A stretch of DNA of 64,000 bases from contig PLLO01000018.1 in NCBI GenBank assembly GCA_003142255.1, positions 193,129 through 257,128 on the forward strand. Reading direction: 5' to 3'. The notes beneath the pieces were generated by a model. It ran no database searches, was not told the origin of the DNA, and saw nothing but the letters and a program-made list of their open reading frames with translations. The position numbers were made by a program, and so were the translations under genes. The stretch comes from Bacteroidales bacterium. GTDB lineage: Bacteria > Bacteroidota > Bacteroidia > Bacteroidales > VadinHA17. Of the stretch, positions 1,695 to 28,962 are shown piece by piece (positions within the stretch are counted from its first letter, which is position 1; each line of letters opens with the position of its first letter).

Positions 1695-1717
1695 GTGGAG
1701 ATTAAGGGAGTCGAACC
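1695..1717. repeat. attL: 23-bp direct repeat identical to the 3' end of tRNA-Ala
   Basis: GTGGAGATTAAGGGAGTCGAACC at 1695-1717 is identical to 28940-28962. Confidence 0.85.
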
Positions 1718-1837
1718 ATAACTCTCTATGGCAGACCCCATAAAGATTATTGATTTGTAATGATCAAAAGGTAACCGAACAGTTCACCGGGGAATAGGTC
1801 TTCTCATATAAAAAATAGTTTTTTCTTTAAAAAAGAT

Positions 1838-1865
1838 GTAAAAACCACTTACCCATCTTACCCGA
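1838..1865. repeat. Island-end inverted repeat (left copy), candidate integrase arm site
   Basis: GTAAAAACCACTTACCCATCTTACCCGA is the reverse complement of 28679-28706 (27/28). More GGTAAG/CTTACC units lie at 1897-1941. Confidence 0.7.
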
Positions 1866-2029
1866 ACTTCTAAACCTATTAATAATAAAGATGATGGTAA
1901 GGGTAAGATTCATTTTAAACATTTTACCTTATCTTACCCTGATTTGGAAAGCTGTCAATTAATATTCATATATGAGCATATCAATTCATTTCAACCTATT
2001 AAGCAACAAAAAATCGAAGAGGAGGTTTT

Positions 2030-2091
2030 GTCAAGGGCGATGATACCATATATTTATATACCAAAATATCATCGCTCTGTATACCCTTGAC
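2030..2091. other. Long imperfect hairpin in the non-coding left arm of the island
   Basis: GTCAAGGGCGATGATA (2030-2045) pairs with TATCATCG (2067-2074) and CCCTTGAC (2084-2091). Confidence 0.4.
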
Positions 2092-2478
2092 AAAAACGGA
2101 ACGGAGATTACATTTGCTTAAAAAAGTTGAAAATATTAAGTCTCTAACCTGAAATTCAAGATTTTCTCCCTTTTAAAATTTCAGCTGTGTACTGCAAAAA
2201 CGGGGCTTCTTGATTACATTCAGCCATTAAGTTTAAAATTTGCATACATAGCTAAACAAAGAGGAATTCGAACCGTTTCTTCAATATTCTGATAATGTAA
2301 TAATTACAAGATCCTGATTTTGCCTGTACACCGAATGGTACACCGGGTACACAAATCATGCAAAGAACTTCAATTGCCACAAATGTAATCATTATTGCAT
2401 TTATTATCTTTAATAGATAAAAAGCTGCTCCGATTTTAATTAATTTAACTGAGGAACGACCTTTTTGTAATATAATAA

Positions 2479-3270
2479 TTATGAGATGCTTGTCCCTATC
2501 TGGAAAATAGGCATATACATTGAAATCAATATCAAAGCCACTATACTACCGACAAAAATAATGAGAACCGGTTCGAGCAAACTATTCATTGATTTAACTT
2601 TAGCTTCAAGTTCTTCTGAATATTGCTTAAATAACTGATCGTAGATAATATCCATTTTGTTAACTTCTTCAGCAACTTTTGTCAGAGCTATCATTTTTTT
2701 ATCAAAGATTGGAAACTCATTCATAGACTCAGAAAGAGAAATCCCTTTTGAAAGAGAGGTTTTTATTTTGTGAAGAGCAAATTCCATAGGGAAGAAATCA
2801 ATCATCTGCTCAATAAGTCCTATCGCATCTAACAGGTGAACCCGGGAACTGATTAACAACCTCATTGTCTGGCAAAATCTGGCTTTATAAGTAAGTTTCA
2901 ATACTGACCCCACAATAGGTATTTTTAGCAAAATAGCAGATGAGTATTTCCTGTACCATTCTTTCTTTCTATTGAAGACAATAAATGCAATAATGATTAC
3001 CGAAAGTACCAGTAAAATGATAATATAATGTGAGAATTTTTCAGATAGATTAATTACAAATTGTGTTATAGGAGGCAGAGTACCTTTAAATCTCAAAAAA
3101 ACATCTTTGAACATCGGCACTATAAAGTTCAGCATGAAAGTTAAGGCTATAATAGTTGTAAAGAGTACCAAGGCCGGATAAGTCAATGCGCCTCTTATCT
3201 GATGTTGCTGTGAAATTCTTTTTTCATAAAAGGTTGAAAGCTCCTGCAGTACTGTTATAATGGTACGATT
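2479..3270 (-). pseudogene. Type II secretion / type IV pilus platform protein GspF/PilC family, 5'-truncated
   Basis: ORF 2479-3186 is a polytopic GspF-like C-terminal domain. The frame stays open up to 3270 (NRTIITVLQELSTFYEKRISQQHQIRGALTYP) and is then closed by a stop. About 150 N-terminal residues are missing. Confidence 0.7.
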
Positions 3271-3434
3271 TTACCGGGAAAGTAATCCGGAACAGGCAGA
3301 AACAAACCTTTAACGGGGTATCGACCACCGTCGACAAGTATTTCGCCTATGATCATGTCGAAAGACTGAAAAGTATCGGATCTAAGATCAATGGAACTGA
3401 CAGCCTGACAATTGCCGCACTTTCTTATAATGAA

Positions 3435-5231
3435 TTGGGTCAGTTATCTCAGAAGAGTCTGCATAAATATGGAAGCTCGTTTCTCCAGCAAATCGATTAC
3501 ACCTATAATATCCGCGGATGGCTGACATCAATAAATGACCCGGACAACCTTGGATCCGATCTCTTTTCGATGAAGTTATTATATGAAAACCCGGGTTCTT
3601 TGACCAATCTTACAAAAGAGAGGCAATTTAACGGAAATATATCAGGCATGATATGGAATCGCAATACCAGCCCTTCTGTAATAGAAAAAAGCGCATACAG
3701 CTTTATATATGATGCCCTGAATAGGATTAGTAACGATTATTACGGAGATGGTTCGACGTTAGCCAATTCCGAAAAATTCCGGGAGTATGATTATTCTTAT
3801 GATCTGAACGGAAATATAATTACTCTTAAACGTAATAATAATTCAGGGACTCAGATAGATAATCTTTCATATACATACCTTTCAGGCGGCTCAAGCAACC
3901 AGCTTGCATTAGTAGGGGATAACACGGCTAATACCTCAGGCTTTAATGACGGTAATACTTCAGGAAATGATTATTTGTACGACAATAATGGGAACCTCAC
4001 CAGAGATCTTAATAAAGGATTCAGTACGATAACATATAATTTCTTAAATTTACCAAATGTACTAACCAAAGGTGCCACGAGTCTGACCTATTACTATGAT
4101 GCAATGGGAACAAAGCTGAAGCAAGCAAAGGTTGAAGGAGAAAATACGACAAGCAGATATTATCTTGACGGATTTGAATATGATAATTCCAAAGCACTCA
4201 GCCTGATCCATATGGAAGAAGGAGTTATTAATAAGGATGTAAGCACATTCCAGTACGAGTATTATATAAAGGATCATCTGGGAAGTACGAGGATATCATT
4301 CACACCTGGCACAAACAATACTGTTACATTAGTACAGTCCACAGATTATTATCCGTTTGGACTCGAATTCAGCCCACAGTATGACAATTCTTCAGGTAAT
4401 AAGTACCTGTATAACGGAAAAGAATTACAGGATGGATTAAGTCTTGATTGGTATGATTACGGAGCCAGGTTCTACGATCCGGGAATAGGCAGGTTCATTA
4501 CCCAGGATCCTAGGGCTGAAGATTATGATTCATGGACCCCATATAATTATTGTGCTGATAATCCAATATTTTTTATGGATCTTGATGGAATGGATTGGTA
4601 TACCAATTGGTTTACAGGAAAGCAGGTTTGGTTTGATGGAAGTGACAAACATTTCTTCTATTCCCATAATGAGGGAGGGTATTATTCATCACCTACTGCT
4701 ACAGTGGTAGATTATTCCTACTCTACACTTCATCAGCAAGCAGTAGACTATGTAAGCGCATTGAGATTTGAACAAACTCTAAATGCTTCTGGGATTCAAA
4801 CAAATAGAACTGATAGTCGTTTTGAAGCATTTGCTTCATGGATATCATTAGGTGCACTACCGGAAATTAAAGGATTATCAGGTTTTCTAAAATTATTTAA
4901 AGGATCTCAAAAAAATGTAGTAAAAAGCGTTGAAGAGCTAATATCTGTAGCGAATACTACAGACAAAGGTGGCTTAACTACCGTTGGCAGAGCACTTCAA
5001 AAACATGGGAGTAGAGCTGGAAGTGTATTTCCAAAAGTTGCTGGTTCTCCAGCTGTTATCAATGCACAAGGAGAAGCAGTTTTACGGGATATAATCACTA
5101 ATCCTAGTGTTTCTACCACTATTAGACATCACGCAAGGCTTGGAGATGTACTGGAATATCGAATCCCTAGCGGACAAGGTGCAAGATTTAGTTCAGATGG
5201 CAAGAAGTTTTTTGGATTTATAGAGCAATGA
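3435..5231 (+). CDS. RHS/YD-repeat protein C-terminal fragment with polymorphic toxin tip (cassette 1); frame open from 3261, no N-terminus
   Basis: YD repeats (YTYNIRGW, YSFIYDALNR, YSYDLNGN, YLYDNNGN). Core end is [38 protein letters not shown], followed by a ~215-aa variable tail. Confidence 0.85.
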   Translation: MGQLSQKSLHKYGSSFLQQIDYTYNIRGWLTSINDPDNLGSDLFSMKLLYENPGSLTNLTKERQFNGNISGMIWNRNTSPSVIEKSAYSFIYDALNRISNDYYGDGSTLANSEKFREYDYSYDLNGNIITLKRNNNSGTQIDNLSYTYLSGGSSNQLALVGDNTANTSGFNDGNTSGNDYLYDNNGNLTRDLNKGFSTITYNFLNLPNVLTKGATSLTYYYDAMGTKLKQAKVEGENTTSRYYLDGFEYDNSKALSLIHMEEGVINKDVSTFQYEYYIKDHLGSTRISFTPGTNNTVTLVQSTDYYPFGLEFSPQYDNSSGNKYLYNGKELQDGLSLDWYDYGARFYDPGIGRFITQDPRAEDYDSWTPYNYCADNPIFFMDLDGMDWYTNWFTGKQVWFDGSDKHFFYSHNEGGYYSSPTATVVDYSYSTLHQQAVDYVSALRFEQTLNASGIQTNRTDSRFEAFASWISLGALPEIKGLSGFLKLFKGSQKNVVKSVEELISVANTTDKGGLTTVGRALQKHGSRAGSVFPKVAGSPAVINAQGEAVLRDIITNPSVSTTIRHHARLGDVLEYRIPSGQGARFSSDGKKFFGFIEQ

Positions 5232-5440
5232 ATAAAATGAAAGTTGAAATTACAAGCGTTCCAGATAGAGAAAATCTTGTCGCTGAAATTTGGTTTGATG
5301 AAAATTTAATTGCGGAAGTCTATCAAGAGAATGAGGTTTTAAATGTAGAATTTTATATATCGCCTGGGATGGCCCTTCCTTTTGAAGAATTCCAAGAGGC
5401 ATTAAAAATTGCAAAAGACAAATTAGCTAAAGACTGTTAG
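5228..5440 (+). CDS. Putative immunity protein for cassette 1 (cytoplasmic, 70 aa)
   Basis: ATGA start/stop overlap with the toxin. Small acidic protein with no signal peptide. Confidence 0.6.
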   Translation: MNKMKVEITSVPDRENLVAEIWFDENLIAEVYQENEVLNVEFYISPGMALPFEEFQEALKIAKDKLAKDC

Positions 5441-5515
5441 CTTACCTGTTAACTTTTACTCAAATTGTAAACTAATTCGTGATAATACAACAGGAAGAAG
5501 CTAATTGTTACGACG

Positions 5516-5531
5516 CCGGGTTTTAGTTATT
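5516..5531. repeat. Cassette 3'-boundary block CCGGGTTTTAGTTATT (half hairpin)
   Basis: Matches the right arm of the terminator hairpins that follow the other immunity genes. Confidence 0.5.
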
Positions 5532-5749
5532 ATAGAGTATAAACCTGCCTGGCGTTAAAATCCCTGATCAGTGCCGTTCATACTTCCAGTATCCAATACT
5601 TCACATAGAGCCAGAAAACGCCAAACAGACAAGTTATATGCTGGAAGATGCAATTTCCAGGTGAATCTCATCCGATTTGTTATAAAAAACTGCTATTTTC
5701 ATGCTTAAATTGAGCATTTAAAAGCGATCCTGATACTTTAACACATCAA

Positions 5750-5763
5750 AAAGTTCTTTGAAA
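5750..5763 (+). repeat. Junction 14-mer AAAGTTCTTTGAAA (cassette 2)
   Basis: Exact copy, 54 nt upstream of GTATGATTACGG. Confidence 0.8.
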
Positions 5764-5865
5764 ACACTTCTTTTAAATTAATAAGCAACTGTAAATCTGG
5801 TCTTAGAGATCAATTAGTATGATTACGGTGCAAGATTCTACGATCCGCAAATAGGCAGATGGCAT

Positions 5866-6651
5866 GTGATGGATCAAATGGCAGAAGTTTATTCAAATAT
5901 AACTCCATATGCTTACTGTGCAAACAATCCAATTAGACTTATTGATATTGATGGGAGGTATTTTGATGATGAAAATGAGAAGACTGCACAGCATAACGAA
6001 AGAAGATTAATTAACAAACAACATAGGCTAGCGAATAGAGCCATTAAGATGGCAGCGAAAGGAAAAGATACTGGGGATATTGAAGCTCGTCAGGATGAGT
6101 TAGATAAGTCTTTAAATAATATTAGCAATATGCGAGCTAATGAAAACACAGAATTTAGGTATGCTAGTGTTAATTCTAAAGAAGCACGGCTTTATAATGT
6201 GGAAGGACCTACAACACAATATACTGCTAAGAATGAAAATGGAGATGCTGTTGTTACAATGTTTACCGAAAATAATATGGGTAGCGTGTTGCATGAAGGG
6301 AGACACGGAGGAGATTATGCAACAGGCACTTTAAGAATTAACACCTCTGGTGGATACGGTGTTTCTCACGAAGTTAGTGCTTACAGAGCTCAATATTCTT
6401 GGAATGGTTCTTTGCAGTATAAGCCTGCTGATTATCTTTCCAATAATCCAATATTAGGGTCTGCTTTTGATAAATTGGGTGAAGGAATAATTCCAACAAT
6501 TTCAGTTGTAGACATTAATTCAATTACTCCAGGTCTTGTAAATAATATAGGGACGTCTGTAATGTATAATAAAGGGAATACATCTATTAAAGCATGGATG
6601 CCACTATACCCGCCAAATGGCATAAAAAAAGAAATATGGGACAATCATTAA
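5866..6651 (+). CDS. Orphan RHS C-terminal toxin module, cassette 2, HExxH motif
   Basis: Frame opens at 5818 directly after a TAG: [32 protein letters not shown]. The tail contains [10 protein letters not shown]. Confidence 0.75.
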
Positions 6652-6660
6652 TTAAATACT

Positions 6661-7176
6661 ATGGAAAAAATATTTTTTTTTAGCGCTTTTATATTTTTAG
6701 GATCAGCATGCTCCCACCACTTGTTTTTAAGCAATAGAGTATTTGTTAATAGCGATTCAATAAAAGTAAACTCGCTGGAGTTTGTCAATGATAGCATCTG
6801 TATATATAAACAAACGTTTAGGTGCGAGATGCAAAACCCCTTTAGAGAGGTAAAAATAATTTGTAAGTATAAGGCCTTAAAAAATAAGATAATCCTAGAA
6901 AATTTAACTAGTAATCCTGATAGTATAGGAGTTACATGTTTTATAATACCAGAAGGAGAGCTGTTAAGATGCTCGTTAATTAATGAAAAATTATTTGAAA
7001 GAAAAGCGATATTAATTGATGCACACAAAACGTTTACAATGCATGATTTGTATGGATATATTAATAATGTTATTACAGATACTTTATTGTACAAAAGAAA
7101 TGCCATCCTATATAATAAGCTGAATAGATGTCACCCATATACGATGTATGTGCATTCAACCTTTAGAGAAGAGTGA
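6661..7176 (+). CDS. Putative immunity lipoprotein, cassette 2
   Basis: Starts 10 nt after the toxin stop. Lipoprotein-type signal FFFSAFIFLGSAC. Confidence 0.6.
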   Translation: MEKIFFFSAFIFLGSACSHHLFLSNRVFVNSDSIKVNSLEFVNDSICIYKQTFRCEMQNPFREVKIICKYKALKNKIILENLTSNPDSIGVTCFIIPEGELLRCSLINEKLFERKAILIDAHKTFTMHDLYGYINNVITDTLLYKRNAILYNKLNRCHPYTMYVHSTFREE

Positions 7177-7233
7177 TCATTATAACTGCTAAGGATAGTC
7201 ATCAACCATAATATCTTACAAATCATAAAGCAT

Positions 7234-7264
7234 AAAACCCAGTTCACCGCCGGGTTTCGTTTTG
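7234..7264. terminator. Hairpin terminator ending cassette 2
   Basis: AAAACCC..GGGTTTcGTTTT. Confidence 0.55.
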
Positions 7265-7486
7265 AAGAGTATATGCCTGCCTGACATTAAAATCTCTAAT
7301 CATTACCTTTAGTACTTCCAAGATACACTGTTTAAAATCCACATAGAGCCAGTAAATGTCAAATGACTAATTTACATACTTGAAGATGCAATTTTCAGGT
7401 GAATCTCCTCCAATTAATTATAAAAACCCTTATTTTCATGTTTAAATTGAGCATTTAAAAGTGTTTTTACACTTTAGATACCTCAA

Positions 7487-7500
7487 AAAGTTCTTTGAAA
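7487..7500 (+). repeat. Junction 14-mer AAAGTTCTTTGAAA (cassette 3)
   Basis: Exact copy, 54 nt upstream of GTATGATTACGG. Confidence 0.8.
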
Positions 7501-7683
7501 ACCACTCTTTTTATTGTTAAGGAAGTTGGTATTTAGCTACTTGAGATCGATTGGTATGATTACGGCGCAAGGTTTTATGATCCACAAATCGGAAGGTGGC
7601 TGGTACAGGATCCACTTGCAGAATACCGACTTAACCTTTCACCATATAACTATTGTAAGAATAACCCTATTCTTTATATTGAC

Positions 7684-8262
7684 ATGTTTGGTTTGCAGGA
7701 TACTCTGGTACATCCTCCACTTCCTGAAGTAAAAGTTGTAGCATATAGAAATCCCCCAGAACAATCATTTTATAGTTGGATATGGAGTTTGAGTAATAGA
7801 ATTGATTGGTTTTTATTAGGTAATACTTATGAACTTAAAGTAAGAAATGCCACAAATTACGAAAATTGGATGATAAGAAATGTAGATCAGCAGATTCTTG
7901 AAGAAATCGCAAAAGTAAACAGTGCTCATCTAACCGATCCCGCATTGCATAATTATGTTAGATCAAATGAAAGCTACCAAGGAAAAACGGAGGATAAAGA
8001 GATAATTGAGGAGAAAGCTGGCAATAACATAAAATTAATTGAAGATAAAACCGCTATATGGGTTAAGGATGAAGAAATTAAAGAATATGTTATCGTTAAA
8101 CCTGAATATTGTGTAAATGGCGTTTTTGGTCATTCAGATAGTCTTAATCACCTCGTTTGGAGCAAAGTAGGTGATACTATTCGCGAATATATTGTACAAC
8201 CTGGGCACTATGAGTTAGTTTCGTCGAAAGGGGACACTACAAGAGCGAATAAGAAGAAATAG
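7684..8262 (+). CDS. Orphan RHS C-terminal toxin module, cassette 3, unassigned toxin domain
   Basis: Frame is open from 7537 ([38 protein letters not shown]). The first ATG is at 7684. ORF 7514-7732 is the wrong frame. Confidence 0.7.
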
Positions 8263-8293
8263 TTATTATATAAAATTTCAATGCAATGATGCT

Positions 8294-9091
8294 ATGAAAA
8301 AAACATTTTTATTTTTTTTAATACTTCTTTCGATTTTAGGATGTAAGCGACAAAAAATAGTTAATTATTATTATCAAACAGGTAAAATAATGGTATCCAA
8401 AATTTATCCGGATAAAAGGGATACGACAACATATAAGGAACTTAAATTTTTTGACGATGGGATGCTTCTAAGTAGGTATAATTACAGGAACAACCGGCCT
8501 GAAGGCGGATTTGGAGCCTTTACACCAAAAGGTATCATTATTGAACGTGGTACTTATGAAGATGGTAACCTTGCTGGTGTACTTCAAGAGTATGACACTA
8601 CTGGAGTATTAGCCCGTGAGACATACTATATAAATGGTAAAAAAGTAATTTATTCTTATGGTTGGTATTCGGAAAACAAAGAGATTTTCGGTCAAAATAT
8701 TTTTTTATTTAAAAATGATACTGCTATCTATCGAGTTGGCCAAATCTTAAGGGCGGAAAATGGAACTTATATAAAAAAGATGAGTGCTTACTCATTAATA
8801 ATCTCAAAAGATACTATTTTAGAATCCTCTAATTGTTTTGATCTACGAACTTTTTTCCCTGTTTCTTGTAGTAAATATGAGATATCTTTTGGTACTCCTA
8901 ATATTAATCTTGAGTTTAACAAAGTTGATACTAGTTTTACTACTGCAGATTCATTGATAAAGATTTGTAATTATAAATTTCATAAAGGAATGAATCATGT
9001 TTTCTGCAAAGTGGTTGCTTACTCTGTTGATATAGCTGATACAGCTACATTTTTTGCATATAAGGATGTTTTTGTCAAACCAAAGAAATAA
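8294..9091 (+). CDS. Putative immunity lipoprotein, cassette 3, YwqK/MORN-variant-like repeats
   Basis: Signal LILLSILGC. Repeated Y-x-x-G motifs (YYQTGKIM, YEDGNLAG, YYINGKKV) resemble the YwqK antitoxin family. Confidence 0.6.
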   Translation: MKKTFLFFLILLSILGCKRQKIVNYYYQTGKIMVSKIYPDKRDTTTYKELKFFDDGMLLSRYNYRNNRPEGGFGAFTPKGIIIERGTYEDGNLAGVLQEYDTTGVLARETYYINGKKVIYSYGWYSENKEIFGQNIFLFKNDTAIYRVGQILRAENGTYIKKMSAYSLIISKDTILESSNCFDLRTFFPVSCSKYEISFGTPNINLEFNKVDTSFTTADSLIKICNYKFHKGMNHVFCKVVAYSVDIADTATFFAYKDVFVKPKK

Positions 9092-9125
9092 TAGGAATTG
9101 TTGCAACCATTTAACTCAAGATAAA

Positions 9126-9157
9126 CAGAACCTGGTTTACTGCCGGGTTTTTGCTTT
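9126..9157. terminator. Hairpin terminator ending cassette 3
   Basis: AACCTGG..CCGGGTTTTTGCTTTT. Confidence 0.5.
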
Positions 9158-9353
9158 TAATGTAGATTATCTACAGAGGCTGAATATCATATATCATTGT
9201 AATTGAATAGTCATAATCCCCTTTCTGGTCCACTATTTTGATCCTCGCAATGCATTTTTCTTGAATCTTAAAGGGCATACTGATCCAAAAAATCACTATT
9301 TTCACCTTCAGGAACAGCTTTTAAACTAACTTTTCCAACTGTTTCTAAGGTAA

Positions 9354-9367
9354 AAAGTTCTTTGAAA
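9354..9367 (+). repeat. Junction 14-mer AAAGTTCTTTGAAA (cassette 4)
   Basis: Exact copy, 53 nt upstream of GTATGATTACGG. Confidence 0.8.
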
Positions 9368-9438
9368 AAACCATTTGGGACGAATAAGCAACTGTAAATC
9401 TGGTCATAGAGATCAATTAGTATGATTACGGGGCACGG

Positions 9439-10200
9439 ATGTATGACCCACAAATAGGCCGATTTACCACCGTGGATCCACTGGCGGAAAAGTATGAATC
9501 TTGGTCAGTTTATCAATATGTGAGAAATAATCCTATTCTAAGAATTGATCCTAACGGTATGGATGATTATACTATAAATAAAAAGACAGGAGATGTAAAG
9601 TTATTAAAAGAAACAAAAGATAAAACTGACAGAGTCGTTAAAACTTATAGTAGAAAAAGCCGAGAAGGAGAAGTTAAAACAAATAGAAAAGGAGAAGCTA
9701 GAACTGCATTTGGTGGTATAGAGAAAGGTATTCTATCGGGTGTAACTAATTTTCGTACAAATGACAACATAATTGAGGTGGGAGGAGAAGGTCAAGCGTC
9801 CGTTGCAGGAGTAAAATCTTTTACATTACAGCTTTCAGAGTATGTTGGAAATGAAATTAAAGGTTTCTCGTATTCATCTAATGCTTCTGGAAATGTTACC
9901 GATATGGTATTAGGAAAATATATAAATAATGACCTCACGCATTCTTATGGTTCACCTCAAGAATTACGAAATAAATATGGAAATAGTTATTCTACTAATA
10001 ATATTATACAACAATTTCATACTCATCCTAATGGTATATTAGGTGCAACTGAATCTAATCCCGAACTTTCAACAGACGTTGAAAGACTTCAAACTGATAA
10101 GCCGCTTATACCCAATGCAAGTTTTATTATATTGTATAGAGTTATGGGCCAGGTAAAACCAGAAGAATACGATTATACTCATGAATATAGACCAAAATAA
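9439..10200 (+). CDS. Orphan RHS C-terminal toxin module, cassette 4, possible JAB/MPN-like (HxH) domain
   Basis: TAG then [32 protein letters not shown]. The tail has [12 protein letters not shown]. The domain call is weak. Confidence 0.7.
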
Positions 10201-10210
10201 AGGCAAGGAA

Positions 10211-11833: not shown

Positions 11834-11834
11834 T

Positions 11835-20162: not shown

Positions 20163-20176
20163 AAAGTTCTTTGAAA
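20163..20176 (+). repeat. Junction 14-mer AAAGTTCTTTGAAA (cassette 8)
   Basis: Exact copy, 54 nt upstream of GTACGATTACGG. Confidence 0.8.
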
Positions 20177-20230
20177 AGCTCCTTTAAGAAGGAATAAGAA
20201 TCTATAAATCAACTGAGAAGATCAAATTAG

Positions 20231-20443: not shown

Positions 20444-20502
20444 AGGATTGGGAAAAATGGAAAATGAAAATGTAGAAACTTCTTGCTTAAACTCTGTAAA
20501 AA

Positions 20503-20709
20503 ATGATGATAAAATCTAAAGGTTCAAGGAAAAATTCTGTTTTGTCGACTAAAGAACCAGAACAGAAAAGAAAGGGTAGTACAAAAAAGCGGAAACTTTA
20601 CCCGGTTCAGGATGAAGGTATTTTACCCATTCCTGATGATTATCCTGAAGGAATTAAATATATACTAAACAGCACAAAAAATCAACTTATCGGGAAAACA
20701 TTACCCTAA
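20503..20709 (+). CDS. Hypothetical small basic protein
   Basis: ORF only, 68 aa, lysine-rich N-terminus. Confidence 0.3.
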   Translation: MMIKSKGSRKNSVLSTKEPEQKRKGSTKKRKLYPVQDEGILPIPDDYPEGIKYILNSTKNQLIGKTLP

Positions 20710-20763
20710 TGTGCGGAGTTTGTTGGAGAAGTGCCATTTTTATGCGTGTTATTGAAGAATTGA

Positions 20764-21051
20764 CTATTCTAAGTCAGCTTCGAAATGAACAATAGCTTTT
20801 TCTAGTTCATTTGCATCTATTGAATTTAGGTAGCCTGCGATGGCTTCCTCAATAATATCCTTAATTTGCTTTCGCTCCCAGTAGGCAATTGCTTTAATTG
20901 TTTTATACGTTTTTCTGCTCAGCAAAAGCGTTGTTCGTTGTATTTTATCATCATTATCCTCCGGCGTTTTGATAAATTCCTCTTTTAACAAATGTGTTTC
21001 GGTAGGGGAGAAGATATCCTGAAAGCTATGGGTAAACTGTTTCTTTGCCAT
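20764..21051 (-). CDS. Small protein downstream of ParA, candidate centromere-binding partner
   Basis: 95 aa, directly downstream of parA with an iteron cluster between them. Function inferred from position only. Confidence 0.45.
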   Translation of the reverse strand: MAKKQFTHSFQDIFSPTETHLLKEEFIKTPEDNDDKIQRTTLLLSRKTYKTIKAIAYWERKQIKDIIEEAIAGYLNSIDANELEKAIVHFEADLE

Positions 21052-21070
21052 TTGTTCATTTTTTTATTTT

Positions 21071-21124
21071 GTATTCTACGTATTACTCAGTAATATGGGT
21101 AATATGAGTAATATTGATAATATC
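21071..21124. repeat. Iteron cluster (GTATTACT palindrome plus tandem GTAATATGn 9-mers)
   Basis: GTATTACTcAGTAATAT followed by GTAATATGG GTAATATGA GTAATATTGA TAATATC. Confidence 0.65.
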
Positions 21125-21142
21125 TGTTATAGAAATAAAATA

Positions 21143-21898
21143 CTACTTCTCAAATCGGTTGAAGAACTCCATACAAAGGTGAGAGTAATCAATCGCACCT
21201 AAAGAATTTTTAGAATATCGAAAGATATCCTGTCCTGATGCAGGGGCTTCAGCTATCGAAATGTTATCTCTGATTTTCGTATCAAAAACAAGATCTGCGA
21301 ACCGGGAATTGGTAAATTCAACCACATCACGACTAAGGACTGTGTTCTTCTTGTACATGGTAATGATTATTCCTCCAATCGAGAGTTCTGGATTTAACCT
21401 CTCTTTGACCTTGTCGATAATCTCCATTAGCTTTGCTAAGCCCTGGCTTGCCAGGTAATGTGCTTGTAGTGGAATCAGTACCTTTTCAGCTGCATTTAGG
21501 GCATTCACAGTCATCAGCCCCAATGAAGGGGGACAATCACAGAAAATGTAATCATAATCATTTTGAGTTTTAAGAAGTAACCTCTTAAGAAGATTTTCTC
21601 TACCAGGTTCCATTGAGAGTTCTAGCTCTGCTCCTGAAAGATTCATATTCGATGGTGCTAACCAGAGGTTGTCGATTATTGGTACTTCCGGGATTGGACA
21701 TTGACCTTTTAACGCATTATACATGCTTGGCTCGGCTTCCTTAATCCCAAAACTATGGGATAAATTACCTTGAGGGTCAAGATCAACCAGAAGCACTCTT
21801 CTTTTCATCAAGGCTAATCCTGCACCAAGATTAACGGTTGTGCTAGTTTTGGCAACACCCCCTTTGTGGTTGCTGATAGCGAAGATTTGTGGTTTCAT
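21143..21898 (-). CDS. parA: ParA/Soj-family partition ATPase
   Basis: Deviant Walker A NHKGGVAKTSTTVNLG, 251 aa. Confidence 0.9.
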   Translation of the reverse strand: MKPQIFAISNHKGGVAKTSTTVNLGAGLALMKRRVLLVDLDPQGNLSHSFGIKEAEPSMYNALKGQCPIPEVPIIDNLWLAPSNMNLSGAELELSMEPGRENLLKRLLLKTQNDYDYIFCDCPPSLGLMTVNALNAAEKVLIPLQAHYLASQGLAKLMEIIDKVKERLNPELSIGGIIITMYKKNTVLSRDVVEFTNSRFADLVFDTKIRDNISIAEAPASGQDIFRYSKNSLGAIDYSHLCMEFFNRFEK

Positions 21899-21911
21899 AG
21901 ATTCATGTTTG

Positions 21912-21973
21912 GGTTATTAATATGATCGGTATTACTGATATGCTTTGTATTATTGATATTATTAGTATTACTT
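21912..21973. repeat. Iteron cluster upstream of parA (GTATTACT/GTATTATT units)
   Basis: GTATTACT at 21929, GTATTATTGATA at 21947 and GTATTACTT at 21965. Same 8-mer family as 21071-21124. Confidence 0.6.
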
Positions 21974-22003
21974 ATTATTCATTGAGCAAAAAAAACTAAT
22001 TTC

Positions 22004-23014
22004 TTAAAGCGAACCTGCGTTTAAAGCAGTTGTTATTACCTTTTTACCAATGTCCAATACAATTTTAGAAGGGTTGTAAGTGTAGTTAATGGCTTTTATA
22101 CAATTTCTGGCTCCTGGTACCTGTCTGAATGCAGCTGAGAGTACTTCCAACGGATCTTTGGATTTAGTTAAGCCTGAAATTACATTGACAACCCTTACTC
22201 CATTCCTATACTCTTTTACCAATGGAACGTCTCTAACCATATTCAAAGCAACATTTTTGGCAGTATTTCTCATTTGGTTTTTCATGGTATGGTAGTGAGA
22301 AAAAGTAAGATGTTGAGACCTCTTATAGTCAAAAGTTGAATCAAAGCTTTTCTCACAGGTTTTTACGAATTTAATCCTGTCAAATCCTATCTGAGCTTCT
22401 TTACCTTTAACCCTGTTTTTGGCATTCCGGGCATTGGCCATAGGACTAAGCTTTATTTTATTAGATAAATCCTTTCGGGATACAATTATGTGAATGTGGG
22501 TTTGTAGACCTTCCTTCCTGTCACCGCATTTATTAAGTCCTTCTCTTACCTCCTCGCAATCCCTTCCATAGTACCGATTGTGCTCAATTTTTCCGAAATA
22601 TAAAATGTTATCCCCTGTTAACCCCCGGTTAAAATTCTTTGCATACTCATTCATTACGACTCTGGAATACTCTTTTAGCGCTTCTTCAAACCGTTTAAGT
22701 TCTCTTGTTGTAAGTTGAGAAATATTTCCAATATTCCTTCCTGAAATGGATCGGCAGATATGTTTTTGTTCTACCGGGCTCGGATTTACCGTTAGCATAT
22801 AAAACTTTGATTCATCCTTGCAAAGCTTCGCACGATTGGAGTCAATAGAATTCTGAACGGTAAAAGCAGAAATATCATGATTATCCTGATTGAAGAACTT
22901 CTGATGATCCAGCACGTCATTCTTTTTAAGGTTCTCCTTCTCTAAATAGTTAACCAGGTCATGACTGCTATTTCTGTTATTATCCTTCTTATCGGAATGT
23001 ATCTTTATGTACAT
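22004..23014 (-). CDS. Mobilization relaxase, Bacteroidota MobB/BtgB-like
   Basis: 336 aa, HTHIHIIVSRKD histidine motif, downstream of and overlapping a BtgA-like gene. Confidence 0.7.
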   Translation of the reverse strand: MYIKIHSDKKDNNRNSSHDLVNYLEKENLKKNDVLDHQKFFNQDNHDISAFTVQNSIDSNRAKLCKDESKFYMLTVNPSPVEQKHICRSISGRNIGNISQLTTRELKRFEEALKEYSRVVMNEYAKNFNRGLTGDNILYFGKIEHNRYYGRDCEEVREGLNKCGDRKEGLQTHIHIIVSRKDLSNKIKLSPMANARNAKNRVKGKEAQIGFDRIKFVKTCEKSFDSTFDYKRSQHLTFSHYHTMKNQMRNTAKNVALNMVRDVPLVKEYRNGVRVVNVISGLTKSKDPLEVLSAAFRQVPGARNCIKAINYTYNPSKIVLDIGKKVITTALNAGSL

Positions 23015-23618
23015 GGGATAACTTTTTTATGTATTCTTTATATTCTCTTATATCGGCCATAGGCAACTCGATCACTGGCATTTTTCTTAGTCCGGTAGAT
23101 TTTTCTTCTGTCTTAGACAGCACATTATCGAAATATTTCAGAGTTGTGCTTTGAATTAGCTCCAGTTTTTCGATTTTATTTTTCAGATCATTTTTCTCAT
23201 CTATAGCATCCTCTATGGTTTTAGAACTTTGGGTGTTTATGAGGTCCTTTTTTTCTTCAGAATTGTCGTTAAGTAACAAGGATTTACTTTTGGTTTGTAT
23301 TCCGATATCTCCTCTCCTGGGAGCTTCATTATCGATATATTCCTTCATCCGGACTATAAGAGTATCCATTTTCCCGAAAGTGGGAAGAATGAAATCCTTC
23401 TCCTGTTTTCGCATGAACGATATTATAGTATCTCTGAATTTATTCAGCTCTTCAGCGACAGTTAAAACCTTTACATCCTGTGGATTTAACCCTGTTTTCT
23501 CGAAGTAATAAACCATTTTTTCTACAAGATCTACCTTGCTCATTTCAAACTTATTAGCAAGTCTATCAATAGATATTTTACTCTTTGGATTTACATTTAA
23601 TGTCTCATATTTTGCCAT
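22989..23618 (-). CDS. BfmA/BtgA-family mobilization (oriT-binding) protein
   Basis: N-terminus MAKYETLNV..ISIDRLANKFEMSKVDLVEKMVYYFEKTGLNP, coiled-coil C-terminus, located upstream of the relaxase. Confidence 0.65.
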   Translation of the reverse strand: MAKYETLNVNPKSKISIDRLANKFEMSKVDLVEKMVYYFEKTGLNPQDVKVLTVAEELNKFRDTIISFMRKQEKDFILPTFGKMDTLIVRMKEYIDNEAPRRGDIGIQTKSKSLLLNDNSEEKKDLINTQSSKTIEDAIDEKNDLKNKIEKLELIQSTTLKYFDNVLSKTEEKSTGLRKMPVIELPMADIREYKEYIKKLSHVHKDTFR

Positions 23619-23738: not shown

Positions 23739-23779
23739 CTTGGGCAAAGCCCCAAGGTCGATTCGGGCTCTGCCCGAAT
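23739..23779. other. Candidate oriT hairpins
   Basis: CTTGGGcaaagcCCCAAG and ATTCGGGCtctGCCCGAAT are adjacent. They lie in the gap between the mobilization and primase genes, preceded by AAATAGTTATT repeats. Confidence 0.4.
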
Positions 23780-23857
23780 CCATCTTGCTTTCCTTTGGAA
23801 ACCTTCCTGTTTTCAAACAACTCAATGAATGATAGGTATTGTTATAAGGTTTTAGCA

Positions 23858-24343
23858 TTAAATATTATTTTTATCTGCCAGGTTATATCCGTAAATCCCT
23901 TTTTGCTTAATGCGCTTATATCCAAGCATTTTTAGAGTCTTACCAATTTGTACGTGATTAATTCTGAATTGGTTGTCTGTTGAGCTATTAATAATTTGCA
24001 TTATTTCAGTTGGTGTCATAAAACCATTCCCAATCGTCCCATTATCAAGGTACTTTTCTAAAAGCTCTCTTTCAATAGTTAAAACTTGAAAATCTTTGTT
24101 TCGTTTTTCATTCTCTCGAATTTCTTCGCCAGTTAAGTGGTAGTTGAATGTTCCGCTTTTGAAAAGGTAGTAAGCCTGAGCATAAACTTTATCGATATCA
24201 ATAGTGGTTTTATAGTCCCAATCAATTGAATCAATCTCAAAACAAAGCCAGCGAACTGATCCTGTCTCATCTGAAAGAAATTCATTTTGATTTGTACTGC
24301 CAATAAAGCTGCATCTGCGGAGTATTATGGTTGCATTTCTTCC
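23858..24343 (-). pseudogene. C-terminal continuation of the primase/VirE-like gene, separated by an in-frame TAG
   Basis: Same frame as 24344-25867. Reads GRNATIILRRCSFIGSTNQNEFLSDETGSVRWLCFEIDSIDWDY..GKTLKMLGYKRIKQKGIYGY. Confidence 0.7.
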
Positions 24344-25867
24344 CTAGGGAAGCCTTTCGTTTATCATTGTTTTACTGAAGTAAGCTTTAAGTGAATTCAG
24401 ATCACTTCGACCCATTAATGCAAGTTCATCCAGATTTATTAATAAGTTTTTTGCTAATAATATTCTTGAATCCTTATCGGTTGATATGTTTTCAGCAATG
24501 TACTTTGATAGTGCAGGGGGACATAAAAATCTACAAAAAGTTGACTTACCTGTATTTTGGTTTTCTCCAATTAATATTAGAGCTTGTTTGTTATAATAAT
24601 CAGACAAAAGTGCACAAGCAACAACTCTTACAATCCATTTCTTAAAGTGATTATTAAATGCTGTCTGGTCCTTTGCTTTGATGTGATTAGCAAGTTTTTC
24701 AATATAATCCATACCATCCCAGGCACTTAGATTCTTGAAGTATTCTTCGAACGGATCATATGAAATGACAAAATCAGATTTGAGTAAAGCATAAAGAGTA
24801 TTAATGCTTAGTGAGAATCCTTTGATGAGTAATTCTACAAACAGTGTATTTTCATTTAGTAGTTTAAATTTGCCCGGATTTTCTTTTAATCTATACTCGA
24901 TTCCAAGGCTGACAGTATTAAAGCGAATCTCATACTTAGCTAGGATATAATCTATAATTCTAGTAATTTGTGATATATGTCCAACTTCTTTGTTCTCTTG
25001 TTTTGTTTGCTTTACGGTAAATCCATGAAGTTTGGCAAAGTGAAAGAAGGTTTTACCTGTAATACCATCACCATTTGATTTAAAGCAAGCTTCTATTTGG
25101 TTCTCTGTGTCGAGATATGAATAACCATGATAAAAAATACTTACACGATGGATATATTCTTTGCTCTCATCTCCAAAAATGCATCTCAAAGAATAGATAA
25201 TTTTGATCCAGTTATTATAATTTTCGGTGATGTCAATACTCTTTTTTTCTATTTCTTCTATTAACCAGATAGCTTCAAGTTGTTGCTGATTGTAATTGTT
25301 TTTTCTTTTCGGATAACTATCTATTCTATCAAAAACTAAAGAATTTGGGTTGAAGCGAAGATCCTGATCAAAACTCATGAACATTAACCTGGTAATGTCC
25401 TTACATGATAAATCAATAACCTGCTTGTATTTTTCCTGAAAATATTTTGCAATTGATTCAGCTTGCAATGCCTGAAGTTTAATGTCAGGAATAATTTTTA
25501 TTGTACCCTTAAGCTTCTCACTGGGAGATAAAAAACATGAATGAATAAGAGGGTCTTTCGATAGTTCTTCTTTTAATTGATAAGCATCAGTAGGTTTAAT
25601 ATCATCAATATCGACTTGTATCAATCCGGAATGGCATAAAACATCTGATGCTTTATGTGAACCATTTGTAGTACAACTAATAGTAGATGCGGGCAACTTA
25701 CGCTTAAGGAAATCCCTTTCTTTCTTGTCAATCGTGGAACGAATTTTAAGTATTTGCTTTGCCCATTTCCCGTTCCTTATGTCATTCAAAAGAATTTCAA
25801 TTGGTATATCCGCTGTCTTTTGTTTTGAAATAACTGAATCGAAGAAAGATACAATATGCTCATCCAT
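24344..25867 (-). CDS. VirE-type DNA primase / P-loop protein of mobile elements (N-terminal 2/3, ends at an in-frame TAG)
   Basis: ORF 24344-25939. Likely start is MDEHIVSFFD at 25867. P-loop GENQNTGKST. Ends ..INERLP then TAG. Confidence 0.75.
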   Translation of the reverse strand: MDEHIVSFFDSVISKQKTADIPIEILLNDIRNGKWAKQILKIRSTIDKKERDFLKRKLPASTISCTTNGSHKASDVLCHSGLIQVDIDDIKPTDAYQLKEELSKDPLIHSCFLSPSEKLKGTIKIIPDIKLQALQAESIAKYFQEKYKQVIDLSCKDITRLMFMSFDQDLRFNPNSLVFDRIDSYPKRKNNYNQQQLEAIWLIEEIEKKSIDITENYNNWIKIIYSLRCIFGDESKEYIHRVSIFYHGYSYLDTENQIEACFKSNGDGITGKTFFHFAKLHGFTVKQTKQENKEVGHISQITRIIDYILAKYEIRFNTVSLGIEYRLKENPGKFKLLNENTLFVELLIKGFSLSINTLYALLKSDFVISYDPFEEYFKNLSAWDGMDYIEKLANHIKAKDQTAFNNHFKKWIVRVVACALLSDYYNKQALILIGENQNTGKSTFCRFLCPPALSKYIAENISTDKDSRILLAKNLLINLDELALMGRSDLNSLKAYFSKTMINERLP

Positions 25868-25868
25868 A

Positions 25869-26141
25869 TTATAAGTTCGATTTATTGGCTTCAAGGATCT
25901 GATCAATATCGGCACTTGAATAATAAATGGTTTTTCCAATTTTTGTGAAAGGGAGTTCTTTGTTGTTCCTTAGCTGCTGCTGTTTCCCTTTAGAAATTCC
26001 AAAAAGATCTTCAATATCTTTAGTCTTGTACCACTTCCTGGAGAATTCAAGAGTTTTACTGCTTATAAGTTGTTCGAACTTATTTTGCAAATTAGTTTCA
26101 AGCAACTTAAAATCGTCTTTGGTCACAAATTCAACATTCAT
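25869..26141 (-). CDS. Helix-turn-helix DNA-binding protein, excisionase-like
   Basis: 90 aa, WYKTKDIEDLFGISKGKQQQLRNNKELPFTKIGKTIYY. Sits between the integrase operon and the primase. Confidence 0.65.
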   Translation of the reverse strand: MNVEFVTKDDFKLLETNLQNKFEQLISSKTLEFSRKWYKTKDIEDLFGISKGKQQQLRNNKELPFTKIGKTIYYSSADIDQILEANKSNL

Positions 26142-26269: not shown

Positions 26270-27313
26270 CTATATTTTTTTTAACAAATTGTTCTTTATA
26301 GATGAAATATTAAGTTCATCTGGTATTTTAGGATTGCCTTTCCCATTATTTTCAAAATAAAAATATAAAATCCCTAATAGTTTAAATTCTTGTACCATGC
26401 TTCCTGCTAGTATAAATCTGTAATTTTCAAATATGTTTTTTATGGTATTTATTCCACAATTATATATTTTATAATCATTAATATCACAACTCCCCCGAAT
26501 CTTTAATGCAAAGCGTATTTTTCTCAATATATCTTCATCGATCATATAATCATTCTCATTCTTTGTTGTTTTAACCGTTCCACTTTTTTTACCTATTAGT
26601 TCTGCAATTGCTTTATGCCAATTACCTATTTCATTATTTGACTTATTATAATCGAAAAATGTATTTTCTAATAAGCAGAAAAATGGGAGATAGCTTTTTG
26701 TAGTTCTTCTTCTGAAAAGATCTTCTAAAAAATTTATTTTTATAACAACTTGTTTGGCAGGTAACTGTTCTATAAGGATTTCTTTTTTAATTATATTATT
26801 TTCTGACGGAATCTCATTTGAAATTTTATTATAAAGAGATTCTTTGGTCTTGTTCATTTCATTATAAGATGTACTCTTAATGCTTAACAGTAGTATTGAA
26901 ACGATAGTAAAAGCAGATACTTGAAATGAAATATAAGTGATTGTTAAGATGTAAGAAATAATGTTCTCTGAGATAAATGTTAATAATGCTACTGTGAGAA
27001 TAGCAAAGGCAAAAAACAATTTTATTGTCAATTTCAACCTTCTAGAACATTTCTCGAACTCTCTCTCATCAAACTTATTAAATATTTCTTGATAAATATT
27101 AAATATTAACTTACTGTCCAAAAAGATAGCTATAAATAGCGGCAGAAAAAACCCTACCTCAATCTTTAAGAGTAATGGAATTTTACTCAGTTGAAGAAAG
27201 TAGATGCAAAAACCTATTAATAACAATGTTAAGCCATTAAGGATTTTGTAATTATTTAACCTAGATTCAATTTGTAATTGAAAAATTTCAATCAGCCTTA
27301 GATTGCTTTTCAT
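26270..27313 (-). CDS. Unknown polytopic membrane protein with soluble C-terminal domain, co-transcribed with the integrase
   Basis: 347 aa with about 4-5 hydrophobic spans in the first 170 aa. Overlaps the integrase 3' end by 26 nt. Very AT-rich. Confidence 0.6.
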   Translation of the reverse strand: MKSNLRLIEIFQLQIESRLNNYKILNGLTLLLIGFCIYFLQLSKIPLLLKIEVGFFLPLFIAIFLDSKLIFNIYQEIFNKFDEREFEKCSRRLKLTIKLFFAFAILTVALLTFISENIISYILTITYISFQVSAFTIVSILLLSIKSTSYNEMNKTKESLYNKISNEIPSENNIIKKEILIEQLPAKQVVIKINFLEDLFRRRTTKSYLPFFCLLENTFFDYNKSNNEIGNWHKAIAELIGKKSGTVKTTKNENDYMIDEDILRKIRFALKIRGSCDINDYKIYNCGINTIKNIFENYRFILAGSMVQEFKLLGILYFYFENNGKGNPKIPDELNISSIKNNLLKKI

Positions 27314-28520
27314 GGATTTTATCTTTAAGTTGTTTCATGTCATTACTAACCTTTTTGTTCAGGACTTTAGCATAAATCTGTGTTGTTCTTATACTCTTAT
27401 GTCCCATCATTTTTGAAACCGATTCAATTGGAACATCTTTATTTAAAGCATAAGTTGCAAACGTGTGCCTGGCTAAGTGAAAGGTTAAGTTTTTCTCTAT
27501 ACCACATAAAGTAGCAATCTCTTTCAAATAGGCGTTCATTTTCTGATTGCTAATTACAGGAAGAAGCTTCCCTTTCTTTTCTGTTGATGGATAATTTTTG
27601 TACTTCTCAATTATTTCGAGTGCTTTAGGCAGTAAAGGGATATTTGATTCTGTCTCTGTTTTTGTTCTTTCTGTCATAACCCATAATTCTCCTTCATCAT
27701 CCTTCTTAATATGGTTTTCAGTTAGTTTTTGAACATCAACATATGCTAGCCCGGTAAAGCAAGAGAAAACAAAAATATCACGCACAAGATCAAGTCTTTG
27801 AATGGCAAATGTTTTATTAATTAGAATATTAAGTTCTTCCTCGGTAAGAAAACCACGTTTTACTTCAATAAATTTTGATGAGTATTTACCAAATGGATCT
27901 TTTATTAGCAAGTCATTCTTAACAGCCTCATTGATAACCCTTCTAAACATCTTTATGTATTTTAATGTTGAGTTGTGGTTACAACTTTTTTCAGTCTTTA
28001 AATAATGTTCAAAATCAGTTATGAATTGATATTGCAATTCAATTAGTTCAATATCAGATTTATTGTATTTGAACTTTAAGAAGCTGGTAATATGATTAAG
28101 TGTTGTTTCATATCTTTTCAGAGTTGCCGGTGCATACTCTTTTTCTAAAAGTTCTTTTACTTTCTCGTTATGCTGCTTAAATACCTCAGAAAGTGTTTTT
28201 CTTTCCCCAACCTGCTTATTAAAGTATTGTTTAAGCATCGCGGCCGTTACATATTGATACCTTTCTTCAAGTTGCAGGTAGGTTTTCCATGCCTTGTTTC
28301 TATAAGTCTCAATAGTAGTGTTAATAGTATCAGCATCAGGTTTATTCCCTTTTATTGCGCCTGCATTATTCCACCGGGCCGATTCAATCCACTGCCTGGT
28401 ACTTATCTCGACATGTTTTCCGTTAATGGTAATACGCATATAAACAGGAACCTTTCCATGTTTATTCAGTTTTTCGTTCCTGATGAAAAACAAAACGGAA
28501 TATGTATTATAATTTTTCAT
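27288..28520 (-). CDS. Site-specific tyrosine integrase (Bacteroidota phage-integrase type)
   Basis: 410 aa, HLARHTFATYAL and MGHKSIRTTQIYAKV. Adjacent to the tRNA att site. Confidence 0.9.
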   Translation of the reverse strand: MKNYNTYSVLFFIRNEKLNKHGKVPVYMRITINGKHVEISTRQWIESARWNNAGAIKGNKPDADTINTTIETYRNKAWKTYLQLEERYQYVTAAMLKQYFNKQVGERKTLSEVFKQHNEKVKELLEKEYAPATLKRYETTLNHITSFLKFKYNKSDIELIELQYQFITDFEHYLKTEKSCNHNSTLKYIKMFRRVINEAVKNDLLIKDPFGKYSSKFIEVKRGFLTEEELNILINKTFAIQRLDLVRDIFVFSCFTGLAYVDVQKLTENHIKKDDEGELWVMTERTKTETESNIPLLPKALEIIEKYKNYPSTEKKGKLLPVISNQKMNAYLKEIATLCGIEKNLTFHLARHTFATYALNKDVPIESVSKMMGHKSIRTTQIYAKVLNKKVSNDMKQLKDKIHEKQSKAD

Positions 28521-28678
28521 TCTATAATTTTATATCATTTTCTTCTATCCAAAACCTTCTTACCCATATTATGGCATTGATATTTAATTAACTATATGAG
28601 TTCGGGGTAAGATAGGGTAACTTTTAAAAAAATCAAGTTACCCTATTCAAACCCGCTGTATATGGTGTTTATAGCATT

Positions 28679-28706
28679 TCGGGTAAGATGGGTAAGTGAT
28701 TTTTAC
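28679..28706. repeat. Island-end inverted repeat (right copy)
   Basis: TCGGGTAAGATGGGTAAGTGATTTTTAC is the reverse complement of 1838-1865 (27/28). GGGTAAGATAGGGTAAC lies nearby at 28607. Confidence 0.7.
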
Positions 28707-28880
28707 GCCTATAGGAAACATATTTTTTTCATTATTTTGTAATACTATTATTCACAACAATCATATTTACAATGCTATATTGTACAATTCGGTTACCTGT
28801 TTTCATTTTTACTTATGAGGTAACCGATCAGGCGAATATAAACTAACATTATTTGATATAAAATGAATTCAAAGATAAAT

Positions 28881-28916
28881 AAAAAACCTCAATGGATCAA
28901 CACATTGAGGTTTTTT
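28881..28916. terminator. Bidirectional hairpin next to attR
   Basis: AAAAAACCTCAATG gatcaaca CATTGAGGTTTTTT. Confidence 0.6.
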
Positions 28917-28939
28917 GAAATAGAATGTTTTTCTATTCA

Positions 28940-28962
28940 GTGGAGATTAAGGGAGTCGAACC
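28940..28962. repeat. attR: 23-bp direct repeat inside the tRNA-Ala 3' end
   Basis: Identical to 1695-1717. Confidence 0.85.

Follow-up and report, generated by a model that had tools for sequence, protein, structure and literature searches.

NBU1 and NBU2 of Bacteroides are integrative mobilizable elements (IMEs) that sit in the 3' ends of tRNA-Leu and tRNA-Ser genes, and secondary insertion sites are known for them (PMC5704250). A different type of locus, the rAID-1 cluster, is defined by a 5' XerD-like recombinase that is >44% identical to the reference from B. fragilis 9343, and also by at least two co-directional downstream genes and a GC content of no more than 41% (10.1101/471110). The locus described here, which is compared with both, is a 27-kb island within a 64-kb window (the whole stretch of DNA that was analysed) from an uncultured peat Bacteroidales bacterium, and it occupies the 3' end of the tRNA-Ala(CGC) gene in that window. 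The genome under study is referred to as G000 and was compared within a set of 212 genomes of the genus, which carry G-numbers, while L- and X-numbers denote genome loci or metagenome contigs. With good confidence, the data argue that site-specific recombination brought a mobilizable element into the 3' end of tRNA-Ala(CGC), that this element belongs to a lineage normally inserted at the transfer-messenger RNA (tmRNA) gene ssrA, that the present copy is probably impaired and that its main cargo is an orphan array of Rhs toxin tips and immunity genes. This is an ordinary, well-known kind of element, and the modestly interesting twist is that an ssrA-family element is found in tRNA-Ala.

Boundaries of the island and its tRNA-Ala(CGC) target

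The island is framed by a 23-mer, GTGGAGATTAAGGGAGTCGAACC, that occurs exactly twice in the window even when up to three mismatches are allowed, at 1695-1717 and at 28940-28962. No such match is expected by chance, and shuffled sequence gave 0 matches. The only tRNA that ARAGORN found in the window is a minus-strand tRNA-Ala(cgc) at 28940-29013. Its final 23 nt are therefore the second copy of the 23-mer, which comprises two T-stem bases, the T-loop, the 3' strand of the T-stem, the 3' strand of the acceptor stem, A73 and C74. The exact search and the tRNA prediction bear out the starting point of the sequence-only reading, which had placed the repeat at these two positions and recognised the latter as the 3' end of an intact tRNA-Ala. 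The copy at 28940-28962 is the proximal att core, and the copy at 1695-1717 is the distal one, a displaced tRNA-Ala 3' end that has the native downstream flank of the tRNA and its terminator to its left.

The extent of the insertion is given by empty sites in relatives. In the congener G009, the gene for an MBL-fold hydrolase is followed by its terminator, by GGGCGAAG and directly by the 23-mer, which runs into an intact tRNA-Ala(cgc). The window homologue of this left-flank gene lies at 795-1619 (91% identity), and both core copies of the window (1695-1717 and 28940-28962) correspond to the one single copy in the G009 empty site. The same join was found in three metagenome contigs (L093-L095) whose flanks are 86-89% identical. 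Because these empty sites are precise, the insertion is exactly 1718-28939 (the island proper, 27,222 bp) plus one 23-bp core copy, and what had been proposed as a tRNA-integrated mobilizable island with attL and attR now has comparative backing. On the occupied side, peat and soil metagenome contigs compared with window positions 1-6000 confirm the left junction, one covering 1463-1735 (X11) and another 1678-1749 (X17), and contigs over the same interval had no interpretable empty-site or circle-specific loose ends, in a comparison limited to stretches of 20 kb and so blind to joins spanning the island. The result is a cleanly delimited and comparatively validated mobilizable island from a lineage with poorly described mobile elements.

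It could be argued that the two 23-mers arose by chance or belong to a dispersed repeat, and that the low-GC region is no discrete insertion, but the shortness of the repeat is all that speaks for this. The exact 23-mer is present in 11 of the 212 genomes, twice in G000 only and once in each of the other 10, so it is not a dispersed repeat. Together with the failure of shuffled sequence to produce a match, and with the precise empty sites, which refute the idea outright, this leaves the chance explanation practically without credence. The GC content of the island (1718-28939) is 0.338, compared to 0.445 for the right flank, 0.391 for the short left flank and 0.417 for the genome on average. 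The claim that the interior is more AT-rich than both flanks therefore holds, but less strongly on the left. In the windowed comparison the island had the lowest GC of 658 27-kb windows across the genome.

Several smaller observations concern the same site. In the native flank, immediately to the left of the core, a 17-nt unit that ends in GGGCGAAG is directly repeated (1647-1663 and 1678-1694), and since G009 has a single unit this represents a local duplication beside attB. On the other side of the tRNA, G009 has ~9 kb (L076, G009:C27, ~2381-11437) between the tRNA-Ala 5' side and the homologue of the right-flank gene (29597 onward), where the corresponding gap in the window is only ~0.5 kb, an indel. 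One of the metagenome contigs with an otherwise empty tRNA-Ala site has an insert of ~450 bp (L093, 380-890) bounded by two 62-bp units, each made up of part of the core and native flank (window 1650-1717), and this insert may be a tiny remnant or a duplication. An island-sized interval between the MBL gene and a tRNA-Ala in G006 was rejected as a coincidence, because the tRNA there is tRNA-Ala(GGC), the orientation is opposite and the interval has normal GC.

The two ends of the island resemble the arms of an integrase attachment site. The distal (P') arm is at 1718-1940 and the integrase-proximal (P) arm at 28521-28939. A 19-mer, CTTACCCATCTTACCCGAA, is confined to 1848-1866 on the plus strand and 28678-28696 on the minus strand, one copy in each arm. 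A shorter repeat, ATCTTACCC, has five copies in the 64 kb, at 1855, 1901 (minus strand) and 1931 in the distal arm and at 28605 and 28681 in the P arm; all are within ~340 bp of the island ends, against 0.6 expected by chance. Judged by their position and the integrase family, these repeats are likely arm-type integrase sites, and the N-terminal arm-binding domain of the integrase would bind them in both arms while strand exchange would take place inside the 23-bp core. The P arm also contains a terminator hairpin (28881-28916) that now terminates the tRNA-Ala gene. Because the element brings its own copy of the tRNA end together with this terminator, the tRNA stays intact.

A congener contig, G023:C389, carries homologues of the distal arm (74-82% identical) and of the P arm (89% identical) joined via one core copy, which is of the tmRNA type. 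This P'-core-P arrangement reads as the attP-type junction of a related element, which could have been present as a circle or in tandem. A second arm-core unit is found on the same contig with an AbiE-like gene pair in between, and this favours a tandem array over a circle. The repeats common to both arms and the joined arms in G023 tie both ends of the island to one attP type. The stretch between the two arm-core units (L088, 2365-3643) is a small cassette without an integrase, whose translations, judged by reading them, are an apparent AbiEii-like nucleotidyltransferase and an AbiEi-like partner. Internal copies of the att core or arms, as would mark a tandem of two elements, were sought in the island and none was found.

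Relatives at ssrA and a possible change of target

More distant relatives of the integrase, with 38-74% identity, are found immediately behind a variety of tRNA genes or the tmRNA gene, at distances of 270-400 bp from their 3' ends. In 20 of the 29 scanned loci a tRNA or tmRNA gene ends ~250-420 bp before the start of the integrase gene, which reads away from it. The P arm gives a narrower picture. An arm pattern search detected it in 9 of the 212 genomes, and in seven of these (G170, G147, G079, G156, G148, G050 and G018) it follows directly after the last base of the tmRNA. The arm of the island is 87-93% identical to the tmRNA-adjoining arm of these seven congeners, and among the 212 genomes the junction of tRNA-Ala with a P arm is found only in G000, whose own tmRNA gene (C7:568598-568989) is unoccupied. 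G047 was missed by the arm pattern and recovered by a DNA search. Its integrase is 94% identical, and its arm adjoins a truncated tmRNA end (L029, 9560-9620), with 46 bp missing at the fusion, namely the last 16 nt of the tmRNA and 30 nt of the arm. This suggests that the element lineage normally uses the tmRNA gene as its site.

Many of the ssrA-resident copies show decay. In G079 the whole region from the arm to the ParA partner gene is missing, and G018 and G170 retain only integrase stubs. No complete comparator element was recovered, as the congener copies were either decayed or ended by contig edges. G047 is the closest full relative, with its own integrase split into two frames, and its lesions could be due to decay or to long-read assembly errors. 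In G113 (L074, G113:C8, 5416-6182), the tmRNA gene is intact and has its native flank, and a P arm with a partial core follows 164 bp further downstream. A secondary site that has been displaced, or what is left of a tandem array, would fit this arrangement.

The two target genes have similar cores. The tmRNA core reads GGTTCGACTCCC-GCCAG/CGCAG-CTCCAC and the tRNA-Ala core GGTTCGACTCCC-TTAAT-CTCCAC, so that 19 of 23 positions agree between the GCCAG type of tmRNA core and the tRNA-Ala core. Common to both are the T-loop block and the terminal CTCCAC. This agreement exists because tmRNA mimics tRNA-Ala through its tRNA-Ala-like domain. Both core copies in the window are wholly of the tRNA-Ala type, and therefore the attP that integrated already had a tRNA-Ala core. 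One interpretation is that the integrase switched targets, with a tyrosine-integrase IME lineage at home in ssrA being retargeted to tRNA-Ala(CGC) by way of tmRNA mimicry; its attP core would have been rewritten at all four differing positions while its integrase remained 94% and its arms ~90% identical to those of ssrA-resident relatives. The balance tips only slightly towards this interpretation. Near-identical elements at ssrA and tRNA-Ala provide a simple experimental system for how tyrosine integrases change target genes, with two integrases that are 94% identical and a natural pair of attB sites in which 4 of 23 positions differ.

Backbone, cargo and state of the present copy

The backbone genes are all on the minus strand, and their families were assigned with Pfam and NCBIfam. 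The tyrosine integrase (27288-28520, minus strand) has Arm-DNA-bind_5, SAM_5 and catalytic domains, with the HxxR, H and Y motifs present. From this open reading frame (ORF) its start is 420 bp from the tRNA end. An Ala at the Arg-I alignment position (TGLAY) was considered as a defect and rejected, being a family-wide trait. A second integrase of the same family, 44% identical, is found elsewhere in G000 (C16:156094-157293). The integrase stop is overlapped by the gene for a predicted membrane protein of 347 aa (26270-27313, minus strand), which is 77% conserved in the G047 element and had no match in Pfam or NCBIfam. An HTH_17 protein (25869-26141, minus strand; PF12728, E 1e-9) is a candidate excisionase, or recombination directionality factor; it weakly matched TIGR01764 'excise', and its pairing with an integrase is seen again in distant relatives. 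It is followed by a primase-helicase (23858-25939, minus strand) with a BT4734-like N-terminal domain, PriCT_2 and a VapE-like domain, interrupted by an in-frame TAG at 24344-24346.

The mobilization module consists of a BfmA/BtgA-family accessory protein (22989-23618, minus strand; NF041200, E 2.5e-16, above cut-off) and a MobB-family relaxase containing DUF5712 (22004-23014, minus strand; NF041495, 239 bits against a cut-off of 200; PF18976, E 2e-79). In 131 Bacteroidota plasmid records, MobB genes adjoin BfmA/BtgA genes, and these plasmid MobB genes share 30-40% identity with the relaxase. Upstream of btgA is a candidate oriT (23740-23810) with a G+C-rich 16-bp inverted repeat, 23753-23768 and 23772-23787. 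A 39-bp stretch that includes the second half of this repeat (23772-23810) is 87% conserved next to a divergent mob module in G020, and the inverted repeat (23753-23787) is the best oriT candidate. The backbone ends with a ParA-type partition ATPase (21143-21898, minus strand; PF13614, E 2e-53; CbiA) and a ParA partner of 95 aa (20764-21051, minus strand), a candidate centromere-binding protein with a weak PrgO match (E 0.0017, below cut-off) that was assigned by position.

The backbone genes and the 21 ORFs of the cargo that were scanned had no match to conjugative-transfer families, and the genome, which is 98% complete, had no match to the Bacteroidota TraG and TraM models or to the coupling-protein C-terminal domain (TraG-D_C). 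The sequence-only reading had named the gene families of the backbone, their common strand, an integrase start ~420 bp inside the tRNA-proximal end and a lack of conjugative transfer genes, and all of these held up. With a relaxase pair and no mating-pore genes, the island is best described as an NBU-like IME on sequence grounds. IMEs are recognised by a site-specific integrase with defined flanking att sites, by a relaxase and oriT of their own, and by the lack of complete type IV secretion system and coupling-protein genes (PMC5704250); the island has such an integrase and att sites and its own relaxase, the oriT is only a candidate hairpin, and no secretion-system or coupling-protein gene was found among the scanned ORFs. 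IMEs also excise as a circle and are mobilized by a helper, for which the island has indirect support from a 99% identical segment in another species, described below.

In such an element, excision would be carried out by the integrase with the HTH_17 protein as directionality factor. For transfer, the candidate oriT in front of btgA would be processed by the MobB relaxase together with the BtgA-like protein, and a conjugative element in the same cell would lend its coupling protein and mating pore. ParA and its partner, the primase-helicase and two ParE toxin-antitoxin pairs may stabilise the element. Some of these genes could also be taken to mean that the island is an integrated plasmid or a phage satellite, moving mainly as a free replicon or by helper-phage packaging. 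ParA, its partner and a VapE-type primase-helicase are typical of plasmids and phage-inducible islands, and the mob pair is otherwise found on plasmids. However, no capsid, terminase or packaging genes were seen among the ORFs scanned, a relaxase and accessory pair are present, and the combination of integrase and tRNA end fits the architecture of IMEs (PMC5704250). A plasmid or satellite is thus very improbable, and an IME remains the preferred description.

The remaining ~19 of the 27 kb (1718-20700) is cargo on the plus strand, which the earlier reading had not described, just as it had not reported ssrA as the target of the family or the in-frame stop in the primase. In the distal 1.7 kb, two truncated genes are fused head-to-head. 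One is the C-terminal half of a 5'-truncated GspF/PilC-type gene (2479-3270, minus strand), in which the Pfam T2SSF and NCBIfam GspF/PilC models match from ~165 to the end, and the other is a 5'-truncated Rhs gene (3435-5231, plus strand) encoding YD repeats, a core (TIGR03696 Rhs_assc_core, residues 305-386) and a C-terminal tip. A second GspF 3' fragment with downstream DNA is present in G000 (C11:342045-342492, 83% identical to window 2258-2695), its coding part (342045-342275) being a 76-codon stub, and no intact GspF/PilC relative was found. Seven further orphan cassettes of Rhs core and toxin tip follow at 5800-20443 on the plus strand, identified by tblastn of the Rhs fragment and from ORF translations, with few Pfam matches; their Rhs-core remnants start at 5803, 7540, 9406, 11042, 13348, 18599 and 20231. 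Each Rhs cassette is trailed by small genes that are candidates for immunity functions. Within this array are a ParE-family toxin and antitoxin pair (12393-12943, minus strand; PF05016, PF09720), a second ParE-family toxin with a small upstream ORF (14558-15117, minus strand; PF05016), an overlapping pair of XerC/D-like tyrosine recombinases (15307-17216, plus strand; PF00589, E 6e-42 and 3.5e-12) and an IS3-family insertion sequence (17243-18375, plus strand; orfA HTH_Tnp_1, orfB rve), which is the sole copy in the genome.

The main cargo is an orphan Rhs toxin-tip and immunity array. The genome contains no full-length Rhs by tblastn of the Rhs fragment, and no type VI secretion system (T6SS) sheath gene was found in it. 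The tips are thus without an evident delivery partner, which makes immunity a plausible selected function of the array. Such orphan arrays are known mainly from gut Bacteroidales; here they travel on a mobilizable element in soil and peat communities, and they reach even a host in which neither full-length Rhs nor a T6SS sheath gene was detected.

The arrangement of the cargo raises the question of whether the island was assembled in two steps, with an ssrA-type IME backbone of ~8 kb later gaining a separate module, the 17-kb array of Rhs tips and immunity genes. As in rAID-1 clusters, the XerC/D-like pair within the array may have assembled or captured it. Backbone and cargo are on opposite strands and the array has its own recombinase pair. 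Independent soil metagenome contigs that are ~97% identical share 1678-3266 across the left junction and diverge at 3266, exactly at the GspF/Rhs fusion point, which indicates a variant island with other cargo at the same site. In G079, the P arm is fused straight to the parA-partner region with the backbone missing, pointing to modular reshuffling. The published rAID-1 clusters are likewise arrays of low GC that are associated with recombinases, and their intergenic repeats are integron-like (10.1101/471110). However, the absence of internal att core or arm copies means that the island is not a tandem of two tRNA-targeting elements, and while its GC (0.343) and co-directional genes agree with the rAID-1 definition and recombinases are present, they lie mid-array, where the definition calls for a 5' recombinase >44% identical to that of B. 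fragilis. A two-step origin is tentative at present, with somewhat less in its favour than an even chance would have.

The state of the present copy is indicated by several lesions. The primase frame runs on for 161 codons beyond the TAG at 24344-24346, and the homologous codon is Trp in the uninterrupted genes of G071 and G050, making this a TGG to TAG nonsense change in G000. Because of this stop, the IS3 element, the truncated GspF and Rhs genes and a genome without conjugation genes, the copy is probably impaired and stranded. There is also evidence of recent movement. A 4.1-kb segment (17896-21999) is 99% identical in G020, a different species, and the flanks of the closest relative are only 84-91% identical, which indicates a transfer later than the divergence of these species. 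This raises the alternative that the island is a fully active IME that excises and transfers today, in which case the primase stop would be an assembly error or irrelevant and helpers would come from neighbouring cells. In favour of this, the genes for the integrase, HTH protein, relaxase, BtgA and ParA have their full length and intact motifs, both arms and both cores are perfect, and a segment 99% identical in another species speaks for a very recent transfer. On the other hand, the nonsense codon is at a conserved Trp, the genome is without helper genes, an attP junction was not found in metagenome contigs, and excision of NBU1 has been reported to need a large extra region beyond the integrase and the directionality factor (PMC5704250). 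Full activity today is therefore considered unlikely, though not negligible, and an impaired copy in the tRNA-Ala gene is the preferred explanation.

A number of caveats weigh against that explanation. The empty sites recovered are from relatives with flanks only 86-91% identical, as no same-species empty site was found. The predicted attP of the island had 0 matches in metagenome contigs, which by their nature cannot reveal rare excision products. Since the assembly is derived from a metagenome and the primase stop depends on one base, this stop could reflect a minority allele or an error of sequencing. The integrase binding sites, the oriT and the role of the putative excisionase are proposed from position and family. 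As for the change of target, rewriting of the core at the four differing positions is not accounted for by a single crossover, and the direction from ssrA to tRNA-Ala is read from counts alone, seven to eight genomes compared to one.

Comparison with described elements

The closest architectural parallels are NBU1 and NBU2. In these elements, as in the island, a tyrosine integrase lies beside a tRNA 3' end with a short core duplicated, and both have their own relaxase and oriT (here a candidate), a primase gene and no mating pore, making them helper-dependent (PMC5704250). The likeness is one of architecture. The target of the island is tRNA-Ala(CGC) and that of its relatives is ssrA. The island also uses a two-protein BtgA/MobB mobilization module, whereas NBU1 has a single Mob protein, and it has a ParA partition pair and a cargo of Rhs tips and immunity genes rather than resistance genes. 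The mobilization module itself resembles the BfmA/BtgA-MobB modules of Bacteroidota plasmids of the pBFTM10 type, with the same gene pair in the same order and both NCBIfam models above cut-off. However, identity to these is only 30-40%, and the module of the island is chromosomal, inside an integrase-bearing island.

With regard to the insertion site, the close relatives of the island resemble the ssrA islands of the Islander and TIGER catalogues and of Dehalococcoides in residing at the 3' end of ssrA, where many of them are tandem or decayed remnants, in line with the published pattern for such islands (PMC4383910, PMC3146451). The present copy differs in that its site is a genuine tRNA-Ala gene. 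The recombinase is also of another kind, a tyrosine integrase in the family of the island and a serine recombinase in the Dehalococcoides ssrA islands. With regard to the cargo, the array resembles rAID-1 of gut Bacteroidales in being a low-GC, co-directional array of orphan immunity genes and toxin fragments with XerD-like recombinases on mobile DNA (10.1101/471110). The two nevertheless differ in that the recombinase pair of the island is mid-array and not at the 5' end, its host is a peat bacterium in which no T6SS sheath gene was found, and every cassette of the island retains an Rhs-core toxin tip.

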